Shown: positions 199 through 45,225 of the stretch, in pieces
How positions within the stretch are numbered: the first letter of the stretch is position 1
Layout: every line of letters starts with the position of its first letter
Virus record (IMG/VR): IMGVR_UViG_3300042261_001186
Coordinates: 66,398-130,397 of that record
From: a virus
Direction: 5' to 3' (one strand)
Length of the DNA: 64,000 nt
Translations under genes and position numbers: made by a program
The notes under the pieces: generated by a model
Databases searched by the model: none
What the model was told of the DNA's origin: nothing
The model's input: only the letters and a program-made list of their open reading frames with translations

Positions 199-423
199 TT
201 ATTGCCATTCGATATTTTTGTCTTTATATATTTCTAGTTTTTGTAGTTCTTCAATTATTTTATTTGTGGCATCCCTTATAGATCCTGATAACATATGGGC
301 ATTACCATCCTCATCTGCATAAACATCAACATATGACAATATTATGTCATATATTTTAAGTCGTAAGTCATGTTCAGGAAAATCCCAATATGGTTCCAAT
401 TGTTCATTAAATTTGTCTATCAT
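199..423 (-). CDS. small hypothetical protein with C-terminal IEW tag
   Basis: Ends IYKDKNIEWQ; ATGA overlap with upstream ORF. Confidence 0.75.
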   Translation of the reverse strand: MIDKFNEQLEPYWDFPEHDLRLKIYDIILSYVDVYADEDGNAHMLSGSIRDATNKIIEELQKLEIYKDKNIEWQ

Positions 424-14008: not shown

Positions 14009-14362
14009 TCAGAACCATTCTATGTCTTCTTCTTTTATTATTTCTTTTGGACCACCCAATATTCTCAGTAATGCTGCTTCTGGATCTTTGTAGCATATAT
14101 TGTCTATCATAACATAACCATTAACATCATTGGCACATGCTTGACAAACAAAGAAAACAGCATATCTCTCCTCGGTTTTTGATATATCTTCTTTTACTTG
14201 CTCAATCCAATTATCCCCTGGTTCATCTTTTTCTATGGAAACTTGCATATTTGCTGAATCATAATATATTAACAAGCAATTGTCTTCACCACACTCATTA
14301 CACCTAGAATCTTTGAAAATCAATCCTTCATTTATGAAACTTGAGTATTTCTTTAGTACCAT
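14009..14362 (-). CDS. zinc-ribbon protein with leader and IEW tag
   Basis: CxxC...CxxC; KYSSFINE; ends IIKEEDIEWF. Confidence 0.75.
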   Translation of the reverse strand: MVLKKYSSFINEGLIFKDSRCNECGEDNCLLIYYDSANMQVSIEKDEPGDNWIEQVKEDISKTEERYAVFFVCQACANDVNGYVMIDNICYKDPEAALLRILGGPKEIIKEEDIEWF

Positions 14363-14730
14363 TCTATATTTTCATCTTTTATTATTTCTGGTGGTTCGGA
14401 CATTGCTATTATTTTCTTAAGAGCTTTGTATGAATCTTTATATCTTTTACCATCAATCACAACACTTCCACTTGATTCATCTTCACATTCATTGCAAGCA
14501 TAAAAAGTATTGTAATTGTTGTTAGTCTCAATATCATTTTTTATGTCATTTAAGGTGATATTTTTCATAGATTGACCATTTGAATTCAAAATTGTACCAT
14601 CTGATTCTATATCGATCTCACCAAGTTTTGTTGACCTATATATTATTACTATAGTATTATTTTCACCACAAACAGAACATTGAGATTTAAATAATCTACT
14701 CTCATTCAAAAATTCTAGGAAATTCCTCAT
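14353..14730 (-). CDS. zinc-ribbon paralog with leader and IEW tag
   Basis: CSVC...CNEC; MRNFLEFLNE; ends IIKDENIEWY. Confidence 0.75.
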   Translation of the reverse strand: MRNFLEFLNESRLFKSQCSVCGENNTIVIIYRSTKLGEIDIESDGTILNSNGQSMKNITLNDIKNDIETNNNYNTFYACNECEDESSGSVVIDGKRYKDSYKALKKIIAMSEPPEIIKDENIEWY

Positions 14731-32880: not shown

Positions 32881-33183
32881 ATGGAACTCAGTAGTTATCA
32901 GATAAAAGCTATTTTAAGACACATACCAGGTATTTTACATGTATTGTATTTGGGGAATAATAAATATGTTTTCAATTACAAAAAAGAAAATGGTACAAGT
33001 TATCAAACTAGAATGATTATTCAAAAAAAACAATATGTACCAATTCATCTTAGACATTTGAGTATGGAATCTCTTTTTTTTGTAAAAACAGAAATTGAAA
33101 GAAGTGTTAGAAAACATATAGAGATGCGTAATATTTTTGGAAGAAAAGAAGAGTATAAAGAGGAGAACATAGAATGGATGTAG
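32881..33183 (+). CDS. IEW-tagged protein
   Basis: Ends YKEENIEWM. Confidence 0.75.
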   Translation: MELSSYQIKAILRHIPGILHVLYLGNNKYVFNYKKENGTSYQTRMIIQKKQYVPIHLRHLSMESLFFVKTEIERSVRKHIEMRNIFGRKEEYKEENIEWM

Positions 33184-33425
33184 GTATTTACAAACCAAAA
33201 GATATGTATTATGGATTGGATTCTGTTAAAATAAAAAAAGTAGTTTATTTTTTAAGAGATCAACATGATTGGACCAATAGGAAATTCAAGACTTATGAAG
33301 ATTGTTTGGAATTCAAAACACATTTCAGTAGTGATGTGTGGGATGAATTTGTTAAATATTTAGAGAAATATCAAAACATAACTATTATAGAGAAAATCAA
33401 AGAGGAGGATATAGAATGGCTTTGA
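33174..33425 (+). CDS. IEW-tagged protein
   Basis: Ends IKEEDIEWL. Confidence 0.75.
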   Translation: MDVGIYKPKDMYYGLDSVKIKKVVYFLRDQHDWTNRKFKTYEDCLEFKTHFSSDVWDEFVKYLEKYQNITIIEKIKEEDIEWL

Positions 33426-33694
33426 TATTGGAAAACATAGCGATTATTTCGAAATATTTGAAAAGTGCCAAAGTGAATTACACTGGTAACAACATGTATT
33501 CAATTATCATTCGCGATTTGTATGTCAATGTTTTGATAGATGAACACTTATATGATTTGGAATTAATGACGATGGTCAGGTTTGCGTTCAAAGAAAAATA
33601 TGGAGTTGATATTTTGAAGACAACACTTGAACATAATTTGAAACGTTTGAATGATAAAGAAACTTATAAAGAGGAGGATATAGAGTGGTTATGA
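33416..33694 (+). CDS. IEW-tagged protein
   Basis: Ends YKEEDIEWL. Confidence 0.75.
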   Translation: MALILENIAIISKYLKSAKVNYTGNNMYSIIIRDLYVNVLIDEHLYDLELMTMVRFAFKEKYGVDILKTTLEHNLKRLNDKETYKEEDIEWL

Positions 33695-33963
33695 GACAAA
33701 CTACAGTTTTGATACAAAATAAATTACCGAATGGGTTCAAAGTTGATTACCAACTAGGTGGGTCTCAATTGATTGTTTATACACCAAATTGGAAATCTGT
33801 AACAATTAGATTGAGTTCCTTAGAAATAAGACATGCGCACAGGTTGATAGATTCTATTGTCAGAAGAATAGAGTCAAAATTCAAATACAAACACAACATT
33901 TATCTTAATGTGGAACCTAGGTACATTGAAACATATAAAGAGGAGAATATAGAATGGATATAA
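33691..33963 (+). CDS. IEW-tagged protein
   Basis: Ends YKEENIEWI. Confidence 0.75.
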   Translation: MRQTTVLIQNKLPNGFKVDYQLGGSQLIVYTPNWKSVTIRLSSLEIRHAHRLIDSIVRRIESKFKYKHNIYLNVEPRYIETYKEENIEWI

Positions 33964-34301
33964 GTCCTAGAAGAGCATGTGAATTGATAAAGGACAAGCT
34001 TCCTAATGGATATGAAATCAGTTATAAAATATAACCAGGATGGAGAGGCTGAGGAGAAGCTGGATTTTGGATTACTTCCTTATCAGGAAGTGGGGTTTTC
34101 TCTATTGTTACCAATGATAAAAAATCAATTAAAGTATCAGTTTATTATCATGAAATAATGCAATTGGAAAGCAATTATATATTGGAAAGTGTTATCAATA
34201 GAATTAAAAAGAATTTTGAAATAAAATATGAAACTTTAGCTCCAACATGGCTCCATGAAAATCTTGAAAATTACAAAGAGGAGGACATAGAATGGTTATG
34301 A
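33954..34301 (+). pseudogene. IEW-tagged gene interrupted by an in-frame insertion of about 48 nt with two stops
   Basis: MDISP...KLPNGYEISYKI*PGWRG*GEAGFWITSLSGSGVF...YKEEDIEWL in one frame; paralog of 33691 (KLPNG). Confidence 0.65.
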
Positions 34302-34561
34302 CAAAAGATGTTCTAGAAAAAGTTAAATCTTTACATGGAATAAATTATATTTTTCATGATGGAATGTGTAGATTGGAATATAATGGATATATGGTTCAGT
34401 TCAAACTCTATAAAAGTTATTCTAGTACTATTAAAATAATTGGATTAATAAAGAAACATTTTTATCAAAAACATAGATTACATTTCAATATGAGAGATGT
34501 TGCAGAATTATTTAAAAATGGTATAGAACATTATAAAGAGGAGAACATAGAATGGCTATGA
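34292..34561 (+). CDS. IEW-tagged protein
   Basis: Ends YKEENIEWL. Confidence 0.75.
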   Translation: MVMTKDVLEKVKSLHGINYIFHDGMCRLEYNGYMVQFKLYKSYSSTIKIIGLIKKHFYQKHRLHFNMRDVAELFKNGIEHYKEENIEWL

Positions 34562-34809
34562 CAAAAAATCAGATTGCTGATATGATAGAAGATTCTTTTG
34601 AAGGGACATTGGTGAGGTTCTTATCAGATAATGTCATAAAACTCCATTATGATCTTAAATGGGGTAATCGAAAAAAAAGGACTATTGTGATAGGTATAGA
34701 TTCTTCTTTTAAATATGAAAGTAAAGAAAAACTTTTGGTTAGGATAGAGAAAATTTTGGAAGAATATAAAGAAGAAAAATATGATGAATCAAACATAGAA
34801 TGGTTATGA
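34552..34809 (+). CDS. IEW-tagged protein
   Basis: Ends YDESNIEWL. Confidence 0.75.
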   Translation: MAMTKNQIADMIEDSFEGTLVRFLSDNVIKLHYDLKWGNRKKRTIVIGIDSSFKYESKEKLLVRIEKILEEYKEEKYDESNIEWL

Positions 34810-35063
34810 TGGATCAATTGGAAGTATTAGAACAAATAGATAAAATGCATGGAATAGAATCAGTTAATTACATTGGTTTAAATACATATTCTATACATAT
34901 CAAAGACAACAGAAAAATTTCAATAAAAATAAATCATGAAAAAATAAGTTTGACTCATATGGATTTACTTAAAGAATCTATATACCGTGATTTTAGGATG
35001 AAATATGGTATCAATTTACACAACATAGAAAAATATGATGATTCAAATATAGAATGGTTATGA
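34800..35063 (+). CDS. IEW-tagged protein
   Basis: Ends YDDSNIEWL. Confidence 0.75.
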   Translation: MVMMDQLEVLEQIDKMHGIESVNYIGLNTYSIHIKDNRKISIKINHEKISLTHMDLLKESIYRDFRMKYGINLHNIEKYDDSNIEWL

Positions 35064-35383
35064 AAAGAGAATATTTAAAATACGTGAAAAACGCTGGTGA
35101 AATTATACGTAGGAATTTCAACATACCAGAACTTGACAAACCTTTGAATAGATTAAATGAAATGTATAATCAAAGTGGTGGTCAAATTTACAATGAAAAT
35201 AAGGTAAAGCTGGATCCTTTGGGAGAAGAAGATTGGGGAGATGAAAATGAAGAAAACAACATAGACATAAATGAAGTAGAAACTATAGCCAAATACTTTG
35301 AATATGTAATTGAAAATAGAATGAAAGATATGAAAAAAAATGTGGTTTTGAAAGAAGCCATAGAAAATAGATTTGACTTATGA
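35054..35383 (+). CDS. protein with internal DP tag
   Basis: YNENKVKLDPLGEEDW. Confidence 0.7.
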   Translation: MVMKREYLKYVKNAGEIIRRNFNIPELDKPLNRLNEMYNQSGGQIYNENKVKLDPLGEEDWGDENEENNIDINEVETIAKYFEYVIENRMKDMKKNVVLKEAIENRFDL

Positions 35384-35427
35384 TAATTATACCTAGATTA
35401 TTAGCATTTACATTTAAAAAACACAAA

Positions 35428-35637
35428 ATGGAACCTAAGAAAGCATTAAATAATTATGCTAAATATTCAAGTATTGCAATACAAATGATAGTAATTATAT
35501 TACTTGGTGCATTTGGTGGGATAAAACTAGATCAATGGTTAAATACATCACCAATATTTACGGTTATTATTTTACTATTATCTGTTGTATTATCTATGTA
35601 TTTAGTAACAAAAGATTTATTGAAATTCAAAAGTTAA
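35428..35637 (+). CDS. atpZ: AtpZ/AtpI (ATPase gene 1) family membrane protein
   Basis: YAKYSSIAIQM...GAFGGIKLDQWL..SPIFTV, Bacteroidota-like. Confidence 0.75.
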   Translation: MEPKKALNNYAKYSSIAIQMIVIILLGAFGGIKLDQWLNTSPIFTVIILLLSVVLSMYLVTKDLLKFKS

Positions 35638-35648
35638 TATATACTTCT

Positions 35649-36200
35649 ATGAATATAGAAAAAGTTAAGGAAGATGCATTCAAGGCACATTCTGATATCA
35701 ATCATTTATATGATGGTAATAAACCATATAGTTTTCATTTAAATATGGTTGCTTTGAATGGAATATCTTTTAAGAAATTAATACCAAATAAAGATTGGTT
35801 GAATGTTCTTGCTGCTATTTATCATCATGATACACTTGAAGATACTGCTATGACTTATGATGAAATAGTATCTACAACAAATGATATTGTTGGTGAAATA
35901 GTATTTGCTTTAACTAATACTTTTGGTAGGGGTAATGATAAGTATTATGAAGGTATGAAAAAAGTTGAATATGCAACTTTTGTTAAATTGGCAGATAGAA
36001 TAGCTAATGTTCAATATAGTCTTGATCAAGCAAGAAAGACAGGTAATGACAGAAAATTAAAGATGTATAAGAAAGAGAATGAACATTTCAAACAAATGTT
36101 ATACACATCTGAATATGAATCTATGTGGAATTACTTGGATTACTTGTTTACAATGGAATTCACTGAGTTTTTAACTTTAGATGGTGATAAGTTATGGTAA
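35649..36200 (+). CDS. second HD-domain Mesh1/SpoT-like hydrolase
   Basis: AH...PY..HL..V, HHDTLEDT, VKLADRIAN. Confidence 0.8.
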   Translation: MNIEKVKEDAFKAHSDINHLYDGNKPYSFHLNMVALNGISFKKLIPNKDWLNVLAAIYHHDTLEDTAMTYDEIVSTTNDIVGEIVFALTNTFGRGNDKYYEGMKKVEYATFVKLADRIANVQYSLDQARKTGNDRKLKMYKKENEHFKQMLYTSEYESMWNYLDYLFTMEFTEFLTLDGDKLW

Positions 36201-36499
36201 CACTTATTGTTCTTTCTTTTTTTTATATATTATTCACTGGATTCTATTTCTATATGATGTATACAGAAAATGATTTCAGTGAATTCAAATGGCTTTTGTT
36301 AACACCATTGAATTTGATGTTTACTCTTTTTTTCATAGCAATGTTCATTAAAGAGAAAATAGATGATAGGAAGAATAACAGAATAAGAAAACATATAGAA
36401 AAATTGAAAATTATCGATAGGGAAGAAAAAATAAAATCAGGGTTATTGAAAACCAATCCACTTGATCCTTATTTTGAAGAAAATTGGGATGAAAATTAA
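36194..36499 (+). CDS. two-TM protein with C-terminal DP tag
   Basis: Ends PLDPYFEENWDEN. Confidence 0.7.
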   Translation: MVTLIVLSFFYILFTGFYFYMMYTENDFSEFKWLLLTPLNLMFTLFFIAMFIKEKIDDRKNNRIRKHIEKLKIIDREEKIKSGLLKTNPLDPYFEENWDEN

Positions 36500-36510
36500 A
36501 ACTAAAAAAT

Positions 36511-36741
36511 ATGAGAACGGTAGAATTTAAAGCAGAAGTTTGGGTATCTATAGATGTAGAAGATGATGAAATGACTAATGAAGAAATAATACAATCATTG
36601 GAAGATGGTGTTTATGTTGCTGATTTGTTACATATAGGTGATCCTATTGTTCAAGAAGGTGATGTCATGCAATCTATTTTATTAAAATCTGATAGTCTTA
36701 TAAGAGAAGATGATGATATAGTCTGGCAATATAATAAATAA
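36511..36741 (+). CDS. small acidic protein
   Basis: 76 aa ORF. Confidence 0.6.
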   Translation: MRTVEFKAEVWVSIDVEDDEMTNEEIIQSLEDGVYVADLLHIGDPIVQEGDVMQSILLKSDSLIREDDDIVWQYNK

Positions 36742-36767
36742 AAATTCATAAACATTTTTTAATATAT

Positions 36768-37265
36768 ATGGTTATGAAAAATTTCAGTAATTTTTTAAAT
36801 GAAGATTTTATGGATGTGAATGATCATCTATTTATGGGTTATTATCAAGGTATGACTTATGAAAATGCATTCGAGGAATTATTAAATGCTGTTAATATTG
36901 ATGATTCAGGTAATTACAACACCATAAAAAGTGGTGCTAGATTAGCTTTTGCATTCACTGAGAAAAAAGGTTCTGATAAATCAGCTTTTGTTATAAAACA
37001 TAGTTCAAGTTATTATGTATTTGAAAATTATTGTGGTAGTAAAAGAACCTTTAAAACCATAGATACTAGTCAACCTATGGAAAAATTATCTGTTTTAAGA
37101 AGTGTATTAGTATCTTTTTATGATGATAATGATTTAGTATCTTCTGAAAAGAATAATAAAATGGTTAAGAAATTTGATAGATTTTTTGGTATAAAAAGTT
37201 ATATAAGAAAATTTGATCCAATTGTGGATCCATATGGAGAAGAGAATTGGGAAGAAGATGATTAA
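36768..37265 (+). CDS. leader + C-terminal DP-tag protein
   Basis: MKNFSNFLNE; VDPYGEENWEEDD. Confidence 0.75.
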   Translation: MVMKNFSNFLNEDFMDVNDHLFMGYYQGMTYENAFEELLNAVNIDDSGNYNTIKSGARLAFAFTEKKGSDKSAFVIKHSSSYYVFENYCGSKRTFKTIDTSQPMEKLSVLRSVLVSFYDDNDLVSSEKNNKMVKKFDRFFGIKSYIRKFDPIVDPYGEENWEEDD

Positions 37266-37577
37266 TTAGCCCAGTCTTCCTCACCATAAGGGTCTAATTT
37301 ACTGATTATTCTTTTTGGTTCAAAATTTATTTTTTTACCTGCCATTCTCAATCCTAATATAATTCCACTTAAAAAACTATATGTCGCATCCAATCCTTCT
37401 GTATTATAACCACAAGTAAAACACATCTGATCATTTTCAACTTTAACTTCTATTTTACCATTTTCAAGAAACACCTAGTTTTGGGTAATGTTCCCAAATC
37501 GCTTTACATACTCTTTTAAGATCATCTACTGATGCAGATTCATTTAATTTTTGATATTTTTCATATTTTAGTATCAT
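37262..37577 (-). pseudogene. leader + DP-tag gene with frameshift near 37470
   Basis: MILKYEKYQKLNES... continues in a shifted frame to KLDPYGEEDWAN. Confidence 0.6.
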
Positions 37578-37638
37578 ATTGATATATTATTTTTTATTTT
37601 TGGTTTTTTTTCTTACATTTGTAAAAATTGCAATAATT

Positions 37639-37947
37639 ATGACAGATAGAGAAAAAATAGAGGTATTTTTAGCTTATGTTAGGAATAAATTATTGGATAA
37701 ATATCCTAATATAGTAATTAATACAATAATTTTTGAAGATGAAATTACATATGGTTTTACTTTTTTTGATATTGAAAATAAAAGAATGATGGGTCAAAAT
37801 TATGTAGGTCTACATTGGTTATCTTCTCATTGGGATTCTTTAGTAAATCATATGGAAAGGACATTAAATGTTCATTTTTTCAAACCAAAAACAAAACAAG
37901 TTTTCTGTGAAGTTGATCCATTTGGAGAGGAGGAATGGGAATGTTAA
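37639..37947 (+). CDS. DP-tagged protein
   Basis: Ends KQVFCEVDPFGEEEWEC. Confidence 0.75.
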   Translation: MTDREKIEVFLAYVRNKLLDKYPNIVINTIIFEDEITYGFTFFDIENKRMMGQNYVGLHWLSSHWDSLVNHMERTLNVHFFKPKTKQVFCEVDPFGEEEWEC

Positions 37948-38210
37948 CAAAACCTCAAGACATAAAGGATAAATTACAAGGTAATTATCCAAATATTTAT
38001 TTTACATATGATGATATCATGCCAAGTATTACCTGTTGTAAAATTGAAAATACTGAAAAACCAAAAGTACAAAAATTTAAATTGAGACACACTAATAATA
38101 CTTATGATCTTGAATTGTATTATGCCCTTATCGTTAATTACTTGATAGATATAAATTACATTAAAAAATCTGTTCAAGAATATAAAGAGGAGGACATAGA
38201 ATGGTTATGA
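37935..38210 (+). CDS. IEW-tagged protein
   Basis: Ends YKEEDIEWL. Confidence 0.75.
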   Translation: MGMLTKPQDIKDKLQGNYPNIYFTYDDIMPSITCCKIENTEKPKVQKFKLRHTNNTYDLELYYALIVNYLIDINYIKKSVQEYKEEDIEWL

Positions 38211-38761
38211 GAATCCTCATATTAATTTTATCTTTTCTGTCATTATATACATATGGTCAGAAAAGAATTTTTGTGTTTGGTGACTCACATGTCTTTAGTG
38301 GAATAGGTCTTTATTTAGGTGAGGATTTGAAAAAACAAAATAATATTTATGAATATTATGGTGTTAGTGGTTCTAGTTTTACCAATAATTTTATGGGTAA
38401 GAAAAAAGAATTACTAAACAGAATAAACAAATTCAAACCAGATATTATTATTTGTTTTATGGGAACTAATGAAATGTACTATAATAAAAGTGGTTATAGT
38501 AATTTATTAAATAGTGTTAATTTATTTTTAAAGGATATAGATAAGAAGAAACTTATCATAGTTAGTTTACCTTATTATGAATATAAAAGTGCTAAAAATG
38601 TATCTGAGGGATTAAAAACATTTTCTAAAAAAAATAATATAAAATACATTGATATTTTTAATAAAAAATATTCAGAATTAAACTTATTAAGTGATAAATA
38701 TCATTTCAATCAACAAGGATATAAAAATATATCAGAACATATAAATACTTTATTAAAATGA
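38207..38761 (+). CDS. SGNH/GDSL hydrolase with signal peptide
   Basis: FGDS, GxSG, GTNE, DKYH blocks. Confidence 0.85.
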   Translation: MRILILILSFLSLYTYGQKRIFVFGDSHVFSGIGLYLGEDLKKQNNIYEYYGVSGSSFTNNFMGKKKELLNRINKFKPDIIICFMGTNEMYYNKSGYSNLLNSVNLFLKDIDKKKLIIVSLPYYEYKSAKNVSEGLKTFSKKNNIKYIDIFNKKYSELNLLSDKYHFNQQGYKNISEHINTLLK

Positions 38762-39096
38762 CATTAACAGAATTTAGAGATAAACATAGATGTGGACCAG
38801 CTTTCATTATTTATTACCTAGATAGAGATGGTAATCGTGGGGATATGAATCTAAAAACAAGGACAATGATGCTGAGTGAAGGTAACATCAGACACAATCA
38901 AGATATAATAAGACATATTAGTGAAGATCAAAATTTTGAGCGTTTCTGTGGTGACACTGCAACTGATATATTACTTATTAATGGAGTGATGGATAATCCA
39001 GTACAATTACCAATTGGGGTTAGACTTAAACCAGTATTTCCTTCTATTGCAGTATTATCAAATGAATATGATGACAAAAACATAGAATGGGTATGA
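38758..39096 (+). CDS. IEW-tagged protein
   Basis: Ends YDDKNIEWV. Confidence 0.75.
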   Translation: MTLTEFRDKHRCGPAFIIYYLDRDGNRGDMNLKTRTMMLSEGNIRHNQDIIRHISEDQNFERFCGDTATDILLINGVMDNPVQLPIGVRLKPVFPSIAVLSNEYDDKNIEWV

Positions 39097-39389
39097 CAAT
39101 AGATGTGTTTCGATATAAATATAGTGGTAAACCAATTCCAGCTACAACTATTTCTATTTATTATGAAGTTTATTCCACTGGACCTGGTGGGACTACTGAA
39201 GATGAAAGATCTTTCAAGTTAACTTACAATGATCTTAGTGAAAAACTGAATGAAACTAAAGAGTATTTAAAGTATATTGAAAACAGTCGACATTTTGTCA
39301 GATGGAAAACACCTACAAGAGTAATGGACATCCATTCTTTGAAAATTGAAAGAGAAATATATGAAGAAGAAAATATAGAATGGGTATGA
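39087..39389 (+). CDS. IEW-tagged protein
   Basis: Ends YEEENIEWV; paralog of neighbours. Confidence 0.75.
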   Translation: MGMTIDVFRYKYSGKPIPATTISIYYEVYSTGPGGTTEDERSFKLTYNDLSEKLNETKEYLKYIENSRHFVRWKTPTRVMDIHSLKIEREIYEEENIEWV

Positions 39390-39667
39390 CATTAGGAGAA
39401 TTCAAATCAATATATTCTTTGGGAGAGTACATCCATATAGTTTATAGGGAATATAATAATCTTTATCATTATGAAGAAATGAGGACCATAAGAATACCTG
39501 TTGTTGATTTGGATGTCAATCTTAATTATTGGAAAGCAGATTTGAAATATGTTGAGAAAAGAGCATCTTTCAGAAGATGGGAAACCCATAAAACTGTAAA
39601 TGACATATATAGTTTGACTAAAGATAGTTTGGAAATTTACAATGAAGAAAATATAGAATGGGTATAA
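39380..39667 (+). CDS. IEW-tagged protein
   Basis: Ends YNEENIEWV. Confidence 0.75.
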   Translation: MGMTLGEFKSIYSLGEYIHIVYREYNNLYHYEEMRTIRIPVVDLDVNLNYWKADLKYVEKRASFRRWETHKTVNDIYSLTKDSLEIYNEENIEWV

Positions 39668-44847: not shown

Positions 44848-45225
44848 TTATTTTTTAGACAATTTAGCCTTATATCCAAAATCAAATGGGGAACCTTCTT
44901 GCCATTCTTGTGTTTGTCCATTATAAACTCTGGGTATTTCATTCATCATCAATGAATCTTTAAATAAATCACAATCTACACCAACATTAGAATTCAAATC
45001 TAATGTATGTTCTTCATCACATAATTCAAGATTCATTTTTAGAACTTTGATTTCTTCTTCCAATATCCTCTGACTACTGGCAAATTTTTCTAAAATTGCA
45101 GGAGATTGTTGAAAAGATATAGTTTTTTCAACTAACCCATTCAATATTTTTATTTCTCTCTCTTTCTTAGCGATTTCTTCAGAAATACTAAGTGATACTT
45201 CTTCGTAATTAATTCGGTCTTTCAT
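44848..45225 (-). CDS. hypothetical protein
   Basis: 125 aa overlapping DHFR end. Confidence 0.65.
   Translation of the reverse strand: MKDRINYEEVSLSISEEIAKKEREIKILNGLVEKTISFQQSPAILEKFASSQRILEEEIKVLKMNLELCDEEHTLDLNSNVGVDCDLFKDSLMMNEIPRVYNGQTQEWQEGSPFDFGYKAKLSKK

Follow-up and report, generated by a model that had tools for sequence, protein, structure and literature searches.

A short acidic Ile-Glu-Trp end-tag on small ORFans of a lake phage, and the start of the next gene within its DNA

Short conserved elements attached to otherwise dissimilar small genes are known from several systems. In phage T4, the capsid targeting sequence (CTS) MKTYQEFIAE, a leader of about 10 residues (bioRxiv 10.1101/2021.01.19.427310), is described as directing unrelated internal proteins to the scaffolding core, with the prohead protease cutting after Glu (PMC3012670; PMC9026906), and Alt is described as being also processed at its C-terminus by gp21 (PMC9026906). 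In the hyperplastic regions of T4-type phages, the promoter(early) stem-loop elements (PeSLs) are described as short repeats that flank ORFans, can mediate their gain, loss and swapping by homologous recombination without an integrase and form mini-circles; they are presented as intergenic elements made of a promoter plus a terminator (PMC2839356). Integron arrays (IntI and attC) hold co-oriented small, mostly promoterless genes with a repeat after each, and in translational coupling of the ATGA type a gene starts near the upstream stop on the same strand, repeatedly along an operon. The layout described here combines known elements of these kinds, namely a shared peptide on diverse phage proteins, coupling by stop-start overlap and repeat-flanked ORFans. 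It was found in a 64-kb stretch of DNA (hereafter the window), the right half (66398-130397) of the single 130,397-bp virus record IMGVR_UViG_3300042261_001186 (28.6% G+C), where a short acidic peptide ending in Ile-Glu-Trp and one further residue (the IEW tag) closes small genes and where the DNA of this tag commonly contains the start of the following gene. The whole record is graded complete by CheckV and has 183 predicted genes; its source is an uncultured tailed lake phage with a T4-type head.

In-frame copies of the pattern [YI]-x-[ED]-x-[ND]-I-E-W number 22, all of them within this genome half. In 19 copies the tag closes an open reading frame (ORF) of 47-179 aa as [ED]x[ND]IEW plus exactly one residue before the stop; two copies are tag-only mini-ORFs of 13 and 15 codons, with little beyond a start and the tag, and one is internal (position 24682, within the fused gene 24412-24951), F-E-S coming after its Trp. 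Trp is penultimate in 21/22 copies, and the final residue is hydrophobic or aromatic in 20 of the 21 terminal copies and Gln in the other. A first-pass annotation made from the letters of the window had already counted about 21 such repeats and described an EE(N/D)IEW end-tag; the observation is confirmed, and the placement agrees. The stretch 32881-35063 holds eight consecutive copies, 37935-39667 and 21300-22050 hold four each and 24155-24951 holds three, while the minus strand has two at 14009-14730 and one at 199-423 (Table 1). At the DNA level, the 9-mer ATAGAATGG occurs 20 times in the window, compared with 1.11 times on average and at most 4 times in 100 dinucleotide shuffles, and all 20 occurrences are in-frame tag copies. 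The two variant tag copies read ATAGAGTGG at 33680 and ATCGAATGG at 213 (minus strand). Among the 24 matches to AT[ACT]GA[AG]TGG, two were set aside as non-tags: the match at 21621 does not coincide with the end of an ORF, and the other lies at 45145 on the minus strand.

The repeat appears to be selected mainly as a peptide, i.e., as a short C-terminal label of the form [Y/I]-x-[E/D]-x-[N/D]-I-E-W-hydrophobic-stop. In the other genome half, a polyprotein of 430 aa (G000:14037-15329, G000 being the whole record) is made of four SH3-like modules joined by tag-like linkers, which read Y-x-[ED]-E-D-I-[QKE]-W-[FY]-E-S; after the modules come an internal MNNLKTFEDFTNEE leader and a core that is conserved. 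P0020 and P0021, homologues found in other assemblies and read as coming from two other phages, are 48-59% identical to it by best BLASTP segment. The linkers are invariant columns in the alignment with these homologues while the modules between them diverge, and P0021 is without the first two modules of P0020, its N-terminus starting with a decayed linker. Similarly, gene 39087 has an overall identity of 48% with P0006, a protein of another assembly, yet 7/9 of the last residues match, the C-terminus of P0006 being EEYKEENIEWL; this protein was the sole match of profile A1 outside this genome. That linkers and tail stay while the bodies diverge argues for selection on the peptide.

A second argument comes from two metagenome contigs, L007 and L008, which come from a second low-GC lineage of lake phages. 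Their small genes, Cys-rich or SH3-like, stand in arrays and end in EEDIEW(I/V)AEK(K). When compared with the genome by tblastx, they gave weak, noise-level matches only and no detectably common genes, and profile A2 retrieved L007/L008-type proteins only. At 11 junctions of these contigs, the frame of the tag varies synonymously (ATA/ATC/GTA, GCG/GCA/GCT, GAG/GAA, AAA/AAG), and the same changes alter the overlapping frame of the next gene (G/R) or put a stop in it, while the tag stays. Since the tag frame holds where the overlapping frame changes or breaks, selection is again indicated for the peptide.

The tag has a second property, which concerns the gene that follows. Glu-Trp written GAA-TGG always contains ATG, and any A-ending codon before TGG does likewise; such a codon precedes 189 of the 552 Trp codons genome-wide. 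The ATG inside GAATGG is the start of thirteen called genes, and a fourteenth gene uses the GTG/second ATG of the 33680 copy. Counted by tags, the next ORF (of at least 40 aa) starts within the tag in 14/21 terminal copies, and in two others it starts 3 nt past the stop. The second ATG often overlaps the TGA stop, so that the genes of an array overlap closely; the start is 1-9 nt away from the stop of the gene before it, both genes being on one strand. The earlier claims that the tag DNA carries the start of the next gene, with up to two in-frame ATGs (here ATG-G-NT-ATG-A), and that an unrelated gene can occupy such a junction are in agreement with these findings. The unrelated gene is the GDSL-type lipase 38201, which has a hydrophobic, signal-peptide-like N-terminus and whose start (MVM...) lies at the ATG inside the tag of 37935-38210; the other users of a tag start outside the family are 24942 and 35054, both bearing the other tag of this phage (DP..EE.W). 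Outside the window, at G000:45551 (+), a tag-like junction has a stop codon replacing Trp: AAC ATA GAA TGA reads N-I-E-stop, and the next gene (MIKNFKLFEN...) starts in that ATGA.

As in ATGA-type coupling, the starts lie near the upstream stop, on the same strand and repeatedly along the operon. Unlike in that system, the start is fixed here by the conserved Glu-Trp of the tag, the overlap is stereotyped across unrelated genes, and seven copies add a GAGGAG resembling a Shine-Dalgarno (SD) site. The phage otherwise appears not to use SD sites: an SD-like triplet is absent upstream in 132/154 other genes, and the leaders of the capsid, portal and protease genes are A-rich. An SD-like 4-mer is present upstream of 12 genes, 10 of which start inside an acidic-Trp tag. 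The junction RNA showed no conserved fold, RNAalifold giving 0 predicted pairs on 10 aligned junctions of 84 nt. We infer termination-restart coupling of the arrays, which would thus be translated gene after gene in a phage that otherwise does without SD sites. Further candidates that were dropped are programmed frameshifting fusing neighbouring genes (no slippery heptamer, and CTT-TGA at 33411 shifts to the wrong frame), a reading of TGA as Trp (stops occur within a few codons in the read-through frames) and RegB-like cutting at GGAG. The anatomy as such, a peptide label combined with chaining of genes, is considered highly probable.

Regarding nucleotide-level constraint, codon choice in the tag was compared with a background formed by those of the 183 called genes that have at least 80 aa, the last 12 codons of each gene being excluded; the binomial figures take paralogous copies as independent, so that significance is overstated. 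The codon comparison proposed in the first-pass annotation gave a divided answer. ATA (18/19 ORF ends vs 53% in the background) and GAG (14/14 Glu codons of the seven K-E-E tags vs 8.5%) depart from the background, while GAA does not (18/19 vs 91.5%). The N/D codon just before ATA ends in C in 10/19 cases compared with about 13.5%, and TGA stops close 11/19 tagged ORFs compared with 20%. Two other nucleotide-level claims hold in part. The GAGGAG tract ascribed to the tags is present, as a full string of 27 nt, in 7/19 ORF ends, the 12 others using GAAGAA, GATGAA and similar; the near-invariance of the 9-mer is real in terms of its excess over shuffles, but the conserved DNA core is just 9 nt. 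The conserved 9-mer largely follows from a conserved Ile-Glu-Trp in an AT-rich genome, with some extra nucleotide-level constraint in addition. The N/D codon takes AAC, AAT, GAC and GAT between two perfectly kept 9-mers, a pattern that favours selection on GAGGAG itself over simple homogenisation. There is thus some constraint on the DNA beyond the peptide, seen in GAGGAG and in one junction younger than its bodies, and it fits restart signals together with homologous exchange.

It could be proposed that the RNA restart signal (purine tract, A-rich spacer and ATG-G) is primary and the peptide a by-product. The retention of GAGGAG in seven tags beside a free N/D codon, the frequency of TGA stops and the 10/12 genes with an SD-like 4-mer that start inside an acidic-Trp tag are all expected under this proposal; in addition, the same 18-mer stands just upstream of an ORF in several of the six hits inspected in unrelated viral contigs, and both non-ATA copies (window 213 and L008:3502) have no gene starting in them. 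Yet GAGGAG is missing from 12/19 tags, and the association of ATA with use as a start is not significant (Fisher p = 0.125). The tag is kept without a gene start in seven terminal copies and the internal copy, in the four polyprotein linkers and their homologues, and in L008 copies with an instant stop in the +2 frame; substitutions are conservative in the tag frame (E/D, N/D, L/V/I/F), and the phage in general works without SD sites. A primary RNA signal is for these reasons regarded as very unlikely.

The carriers of the tag appear to belong to at least six unrelated ORFan families, and the divergence of the gene bodies pointed out at first pass is real. BLASTP of the tail-trimmed bodies linked 14009 with 14353 and 39087 with 39380 and, weakly, 33416 with 34800, and no others. 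Shuffle Z-scores indicate weak kinship inside array A (3-6.7) and a closer one between the members B2 and B3 of array B (13.7); between arrays they are mostly about 0, with exceptions of 3.4-3.6, e.g., members A3 or A6 of array A with E2 of array E. No Pfam match was obtained for the tagged ORFs scanned (7/19, plus three other proteins), and no PHROGs match with E <0.002 for the 10/19 scanned, two of the ten lying at E 0.002-0.009. A profile of array A retrieved its own eight members only among 1.84 billion representatives. Family C consists of SH3-like modules akin to those in the polyproteins of the phage, and family D is Cys-rich. An AlphaFold2 model of family C from a 10-row alignment had a predicted local distance difference test score (pLDDT) of 43.9 and was unusable. 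The ESM Atlas gave no match of at least 0.9, its own model having a pLDDT of 0.51. Two accessory proteins from beside the arrays had no match in five capsid-related records. In the broken unit of array A (33954-34301), the first frame resembles the N-terminus of the preceding array-A gene, and the unit appears to be a paralogue decaying by frameshifts; the contigs listed for run X1 leave 33976-34052, inside this unit, uncovered.

Table 1. Tagged genes, their neighbours and other features of the record. Positions are those of the window unless preceded by G000 (whole record) or L011.
Feature	Position	Strand	Remarks
Array A	32881-35063	+	Eight chained units ending Y(K/D)(E/D)(E/S)(N/D)IEW(L/M/I)
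Array A, units 1-4	32881-33183, 33174-33425, 33416-33694, 33685-33963	+	Overlapping ORFs
Array A, broken unit	33954-34301	+	Three short frames of 26, 50 and 47 aa; tag on last piece only
Array A, units 6-8	34292-34561, 34552-34809, 34800-35063	+	Overlapping ORFs
Gene without IEW tag (MVMKREY...)	35054-35383	+	Starts at ATG inside last tag of array A
Single tagged gene	37935-38210	+	Ends EYKEEDIEWL; own start in GAATGG of preceding EEEWEC tail
GDSL-type lipase/acylhydrolase	38201-38761	+	No tag; Pfam PF00657 1.6e-09
Array B	38758-39096, 39087-39389, 39380-39667	+	Three chained paralogues ending NIEWV
Array E	21356-22050	+	All ending DENIEWV
Array E, tag-only mini-ORFs	21356-21397, 21701-21748	+	MQIQYKDENIEWV and MFKDDEYKDENIEWV, respectively
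Array E, full-size genes	21401-21697, 21739-22050	+	Each directly after a mini-ORF
Family C	24155-24421, 24412-24951	+	SH3-like modules; second gene is a two-module fusion
Gene without IEW tag	24942-25295	+	Starts in last tag of family C
Family D	14353-14730, 14009-14362	-	Two Cys-rich paralogues ending IIK(D/E)E(N/D)IEW(Y/F)
Lone tagged gene	199-423	-	Ends YKDKNIEWQ; ATC for Ile in this copy alone; tag not used as a gene start
Prohead protease-scaffold fusion	G000:55710-58181 (outside window)	-	823 aa; phrog_207 2.5e-28
ClpA/ClpC-type double AAA+ unfoldase	G000:50662-52866; L011:10662-12866 (outside window)	+	PF07724 1.1e-62, AAA_lid_9, ClpB_D2-small
Full-length transfer-messenger RNA (tmRNA) gene	20736-21135	+	Rfam RF00023, 69.9 bits, E 3.8e-25
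Motif TTTAATATATAG	15469, 16375, 24150, 29478, 31326, 46108, 52409; G000 60129 and others		Candidate late promoter

With regard to the origin of the arrays, the repeat amounts to a direct repeat of about 37 nt inside coding sequence, with 62-95% identity (most pairs 62-81%) and a 9-nt core. The first-pass annotation had seen in it an integron-like cassette system, in which the junction of about 30 bp would be a specific recombination site for in-frame insertion or excision of any gene. Co-oriented arrays of small, mostly promoterless genes with the repeat at every 3' end are shared with integrons, and the unrelated lipase gene sits exactly in a junction. However, the observation of no integrase in the window extends to the whole genome: the tyrosine recombinase profile PF00589 and the serine recombinase profile PF00239 each gave 0 matches in the complete 130,397 bp, while controls matched 14/14 and 12/14 genomes, respectively. 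Moreover, the 10 aligned junctions have no inverted-repeat or hairpin signal and thus no attC-type fold, the repeat lies within reading frames with a variation that follows codon positions, and polyproteins, which contain no cassette boundary, keep this peptide as well. An integron-like recombination module is therefore rejected as scarcely credible.

Homologous recombination without such a system deserves more attention. The junctions of 34552-34809 and 34800-35063 are identical at 34/36 positions and share the derived YD(E/D)SN form, while the bodies of 34552 and 34800 are dissimilar (Z -0.7); the body of 34800 is closest to that of 33416 (Z 6.7), their junctions agreeing at 26/36. This makes homologous exchange or conversion at junctions plausible. 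Over 54 nt, the junctions 24388-24441 and 24918-24971 have 93% identity, with unrelated sequence downstream, and in L007/L008 one junction is followed by Cys-rich modules in alternation with SH3-like ones. A stronger version would make the junction of about 37-54 nt mainly a substrate of homologous recombination, by which modules are duplicated, deleted, swapped or excised as mini-circles, in the manner described for the PeSLs of T4-type phages (PMC2839356); it would draw on the same junctions and module alternation, and on the two modules missing from P0021 behind its decayed linker. As with PeSLs, short repeats adjoin ORFans here and supply candidate expression signals, but the junction is coding, dual-frame and without a stem-loop. 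Sigma-70-like promoter sites were not in excess (97 vs 85.6 ± 9.5 in shuffles). This stronger version has against it that exactly shared runs are short, given the 9-nt core and the 62-81% identity of most pairs over 37 nt, and that the mini-ORFs 21356-21397 and 21701-21748, which keep both gene ends, look like deletions broken inside the gene body and not at the repeat. These mini-ORFs may be internally deleted paralogues kept because their junction feeds the next gene.

Contigs of the sequencing runs X1 and X3, which may stem from the source sample, and of X2 from another study are identical to the window over the parts listed (X4 being nearly empty), and no indel inside the arrays occurs among the contig matches listed. 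The joints listed have sides of 21-43 nt, mostly link different tag copies and may be mapping effects. Contigs of X1 and X2 show a back-joint 24952 -> 24394 with 15 extra letters and a 473-nt skip 24445 -> 24919; the joints at 24394-24952 reflect either strains that differ in one tagged unit or an effect of mapping on the two 93%-identical junctions. PeSL-like shuffling as the main role of the repeat is for these reasons possible but doubtful, and it can coexist with the peptide label. As for the arrays themselves, they would have arisen by tandem duplication followed by fast divergence of the bodies, with fusion and fission between separate genes and polyproteins and with occasional homologous exchange or conversion at the junction of about 37 nt, without a dedicated recombinase.

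Outside this genome, the tag has a narrow distribution. A capsid protein 46-80% identical by best segment was found at 67 loci. In the five largest capsid-related records, the IEW pattern had 0 matches, and a looser pattern had 0 in four and 1 in the fifth. The pattern D-P-x-x-E-[ED]-x-W has 52 matches in this genome and 47, 18 and 2 in the capsid-related records G001, G002 and G005, with 0 in the two others and 0 everywhere for its reversed control. The IEW tag thus appears to be a narrow, lineage-specific companion of a wider DP..EE.W tag. DNA scans of IMG/VR returned 6 loci for GAGGAGRAYATAGAATGG and 70 for GARGARRAYATAGAATGG, with no ORF-end tag array in the loci inspected, several of which hold the 9-mer more than once in unrelated contexts. 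A related-locus search with alignment A1 met the pattern in 17 stretches, 0 of which were confirmed; in a collection of prokaryote genomes, the long junction pattern had 0 matches and the IEWIAEK pattern 47 single scattered ones without arrays, and blastn of the region against 50,697 phage records gave no match. The tag sequence was not found in print by a text search of a literature library.

Concerning function, the phage has the genes of a T4-type head, among them a portal gene (phrog_213, 9.6e-69), a major head protein and a head-closure protein, together with a family-B DNA polymerase. In the prohead protease-scaffold fusion, the protease region corresponds to about the first 255 of the 823 residues (Pfam Peptidase_S77 5e-4, under the family cut-off), and the remainder contains 13 copies of Y-x-x-Y-[IVL]-[AG]-E, which recur every 14 residues from residue 302 on and resemble the T4 CTS; this scaffold-like part also holds a Gln/Gly-rich stretch and several (L/I)-N-E-S sites. 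CTS-like leaders are present on 24 proteins of the phage, three of which bear the IEW tag; a fourth carrier, 24155, has a similar leader missed by the pattern. The two genes of family D bear such leaders, and nine codons left of a third leader come after them. Upstream of family C, the portal gene, the polyprotein genes and several genes with CTS-like leaders stands the motif TTTAATATATAG, the end of which is 5-45 nt away from the gene start (5 nt for gene 24155); family D likewise sits behind it. Taken together, the leaders, the scaffold repeats, the E-S after the tag and the shared TTTAATATATAG suggest that tagged modules are head cargo. In the polyprotein, the tag precedes a Glu-Ser/Glu-Lys bond of the kind cut by a T4-type prohead protease, and modules cleaved there would end almost exactly where the stand-alone genes stop. 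Tagged modules would accordingly be cargo released with the tag at the C-terminus, the stand-alone genes encoding the end product directly, and the tag would be a docking label or module-end marker of a head-cargo system, a role that is put forward tentatively.

The T4 CTS offers a close parallel. There too, a short peptide is the sole conserved part of otherwise unrelated small phage proteins, and a gp21-type protease, CTS-like leaders and scaffold repeats are all present here. The L007/L008 tag E-W-I-A-E(-K) fits an aromatic-I-A-E motif, like the F-I-A-E end of the T4 CTS. Unlike the CTS, the IEW tag is C-terminal or inter-module instead of N-terminal, and the stand-alone genes have no cleavable Glu and stop one residue after W; Glu after the tag is found only in the polyproteins (W-[FY]-E-S) and in L007/L008 (W-I-A-E-K).

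Several observations weigh against a head-cargo label, or against the peptide as the whole explanation. Arrays A and B, which make up 12/22 copies, are without CTS-like leaders or a nearby late-promoter-like motif and may be early genes without a role in the head. Families C and D carry a CTS-like leader as well as the tag, so that the tag is not simply a second capsid address. The site W-[FY]-E|S differs from the canonical T4 (L/I)-x-E site, and cleavage, packaging and binding of the tagged proteins are putative. The closest capsid relatives (62-78% by best segment, including one complete record of 243 kb) are without an IEW-type tag, and hence no co-varying reader can be named. The retention of GAGGAG, the C-ending bias of the N/D codon and the ATA bias go beyond what selection on a peptide alone accounts for. 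A complex predicted for family C and the protease-scaffold protein (822 residues) reached a score of 0.00, the mark being 0.32, and is counted neither way.

Another role for a C-terminal peptide of this composition would be that of a degron or hub-docking tip, resembling ssrA-type tags or the tips of SSB and T7 gp2.5, which are acidic and end in an aromatic residue. A protease or hub, belonging to the phage or to its host, would read it, e.g., for timing the removal of early proteins. The position of W at -2 in 21/21 terminal copies and the nature of the last residue would suit such a function, as would the non-structural, accessory look of arrays A and B. The phage also encodes a ClpA/ClpC-type unfoldase, which further matches phrog_4871 ('ATP-dependent protease'), and a full-length tmRNA, the gene of which lies just upstream of array E and has GKNQIL as its tag peptide by ARAGORN prediction (Table 1). 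A tmRNA match near the cut-off (44.3 bits) was also seen in the capsid relative G009. On the other hand, a free -W-x-COOH is not conserved, since 3-8 residues follow the tag in L007/L008 and it is internal in polyproteins, and the spacing of one residue is also demanded by the overlap of ATG-A with the stop. Among the five capsid-related records, a 50%-identical copy of the Clp-like gene is present only in G003, where no IEW tag was found but which is only 19% complete, and none is found in the complete G001. A degron or hub tip is considered unlikely, though a rival to be reckoned with in view of the unfoldase and the tmRNA.

The explanation preferred here, a peptide label with chaining of genes, is as a whole held to be probable, its part on head cargo being less likely than not. 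At its most far-reaching, the IEW peptide would be the address label of an undescribed cargo or hub system of the phage, working beside the DP..EE.W tag and the T4-like leaders, in which one reader in the prohead or host gathers about twenty fast-evolving mini-effectors. With the restart codon supplied by the Glu-Trp codons of the label, any ORF landing behind a tag would be expressed at once in this self-propagating plug-and-play arrangement, which would be reshuffled at the junction by homologous exchange and freely convertible between arrays and protease-cut polyproteins; such an extension is speculative and rather improbable.

For these arrays, the result corrects the analogy with integrons. 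Should the tag truly serve for addressing or docking, it would provide a ready list of about twenty phage proteins acting through one partner, and a short peptide for pulling out that partner or for loading foreign proteins. Finally, the interconversion of arrays and polyproteins, together with a restart codon built into the tag, suggests how large phages might grow and reshuffle their small accessory proteins without a dedicated recombinase.

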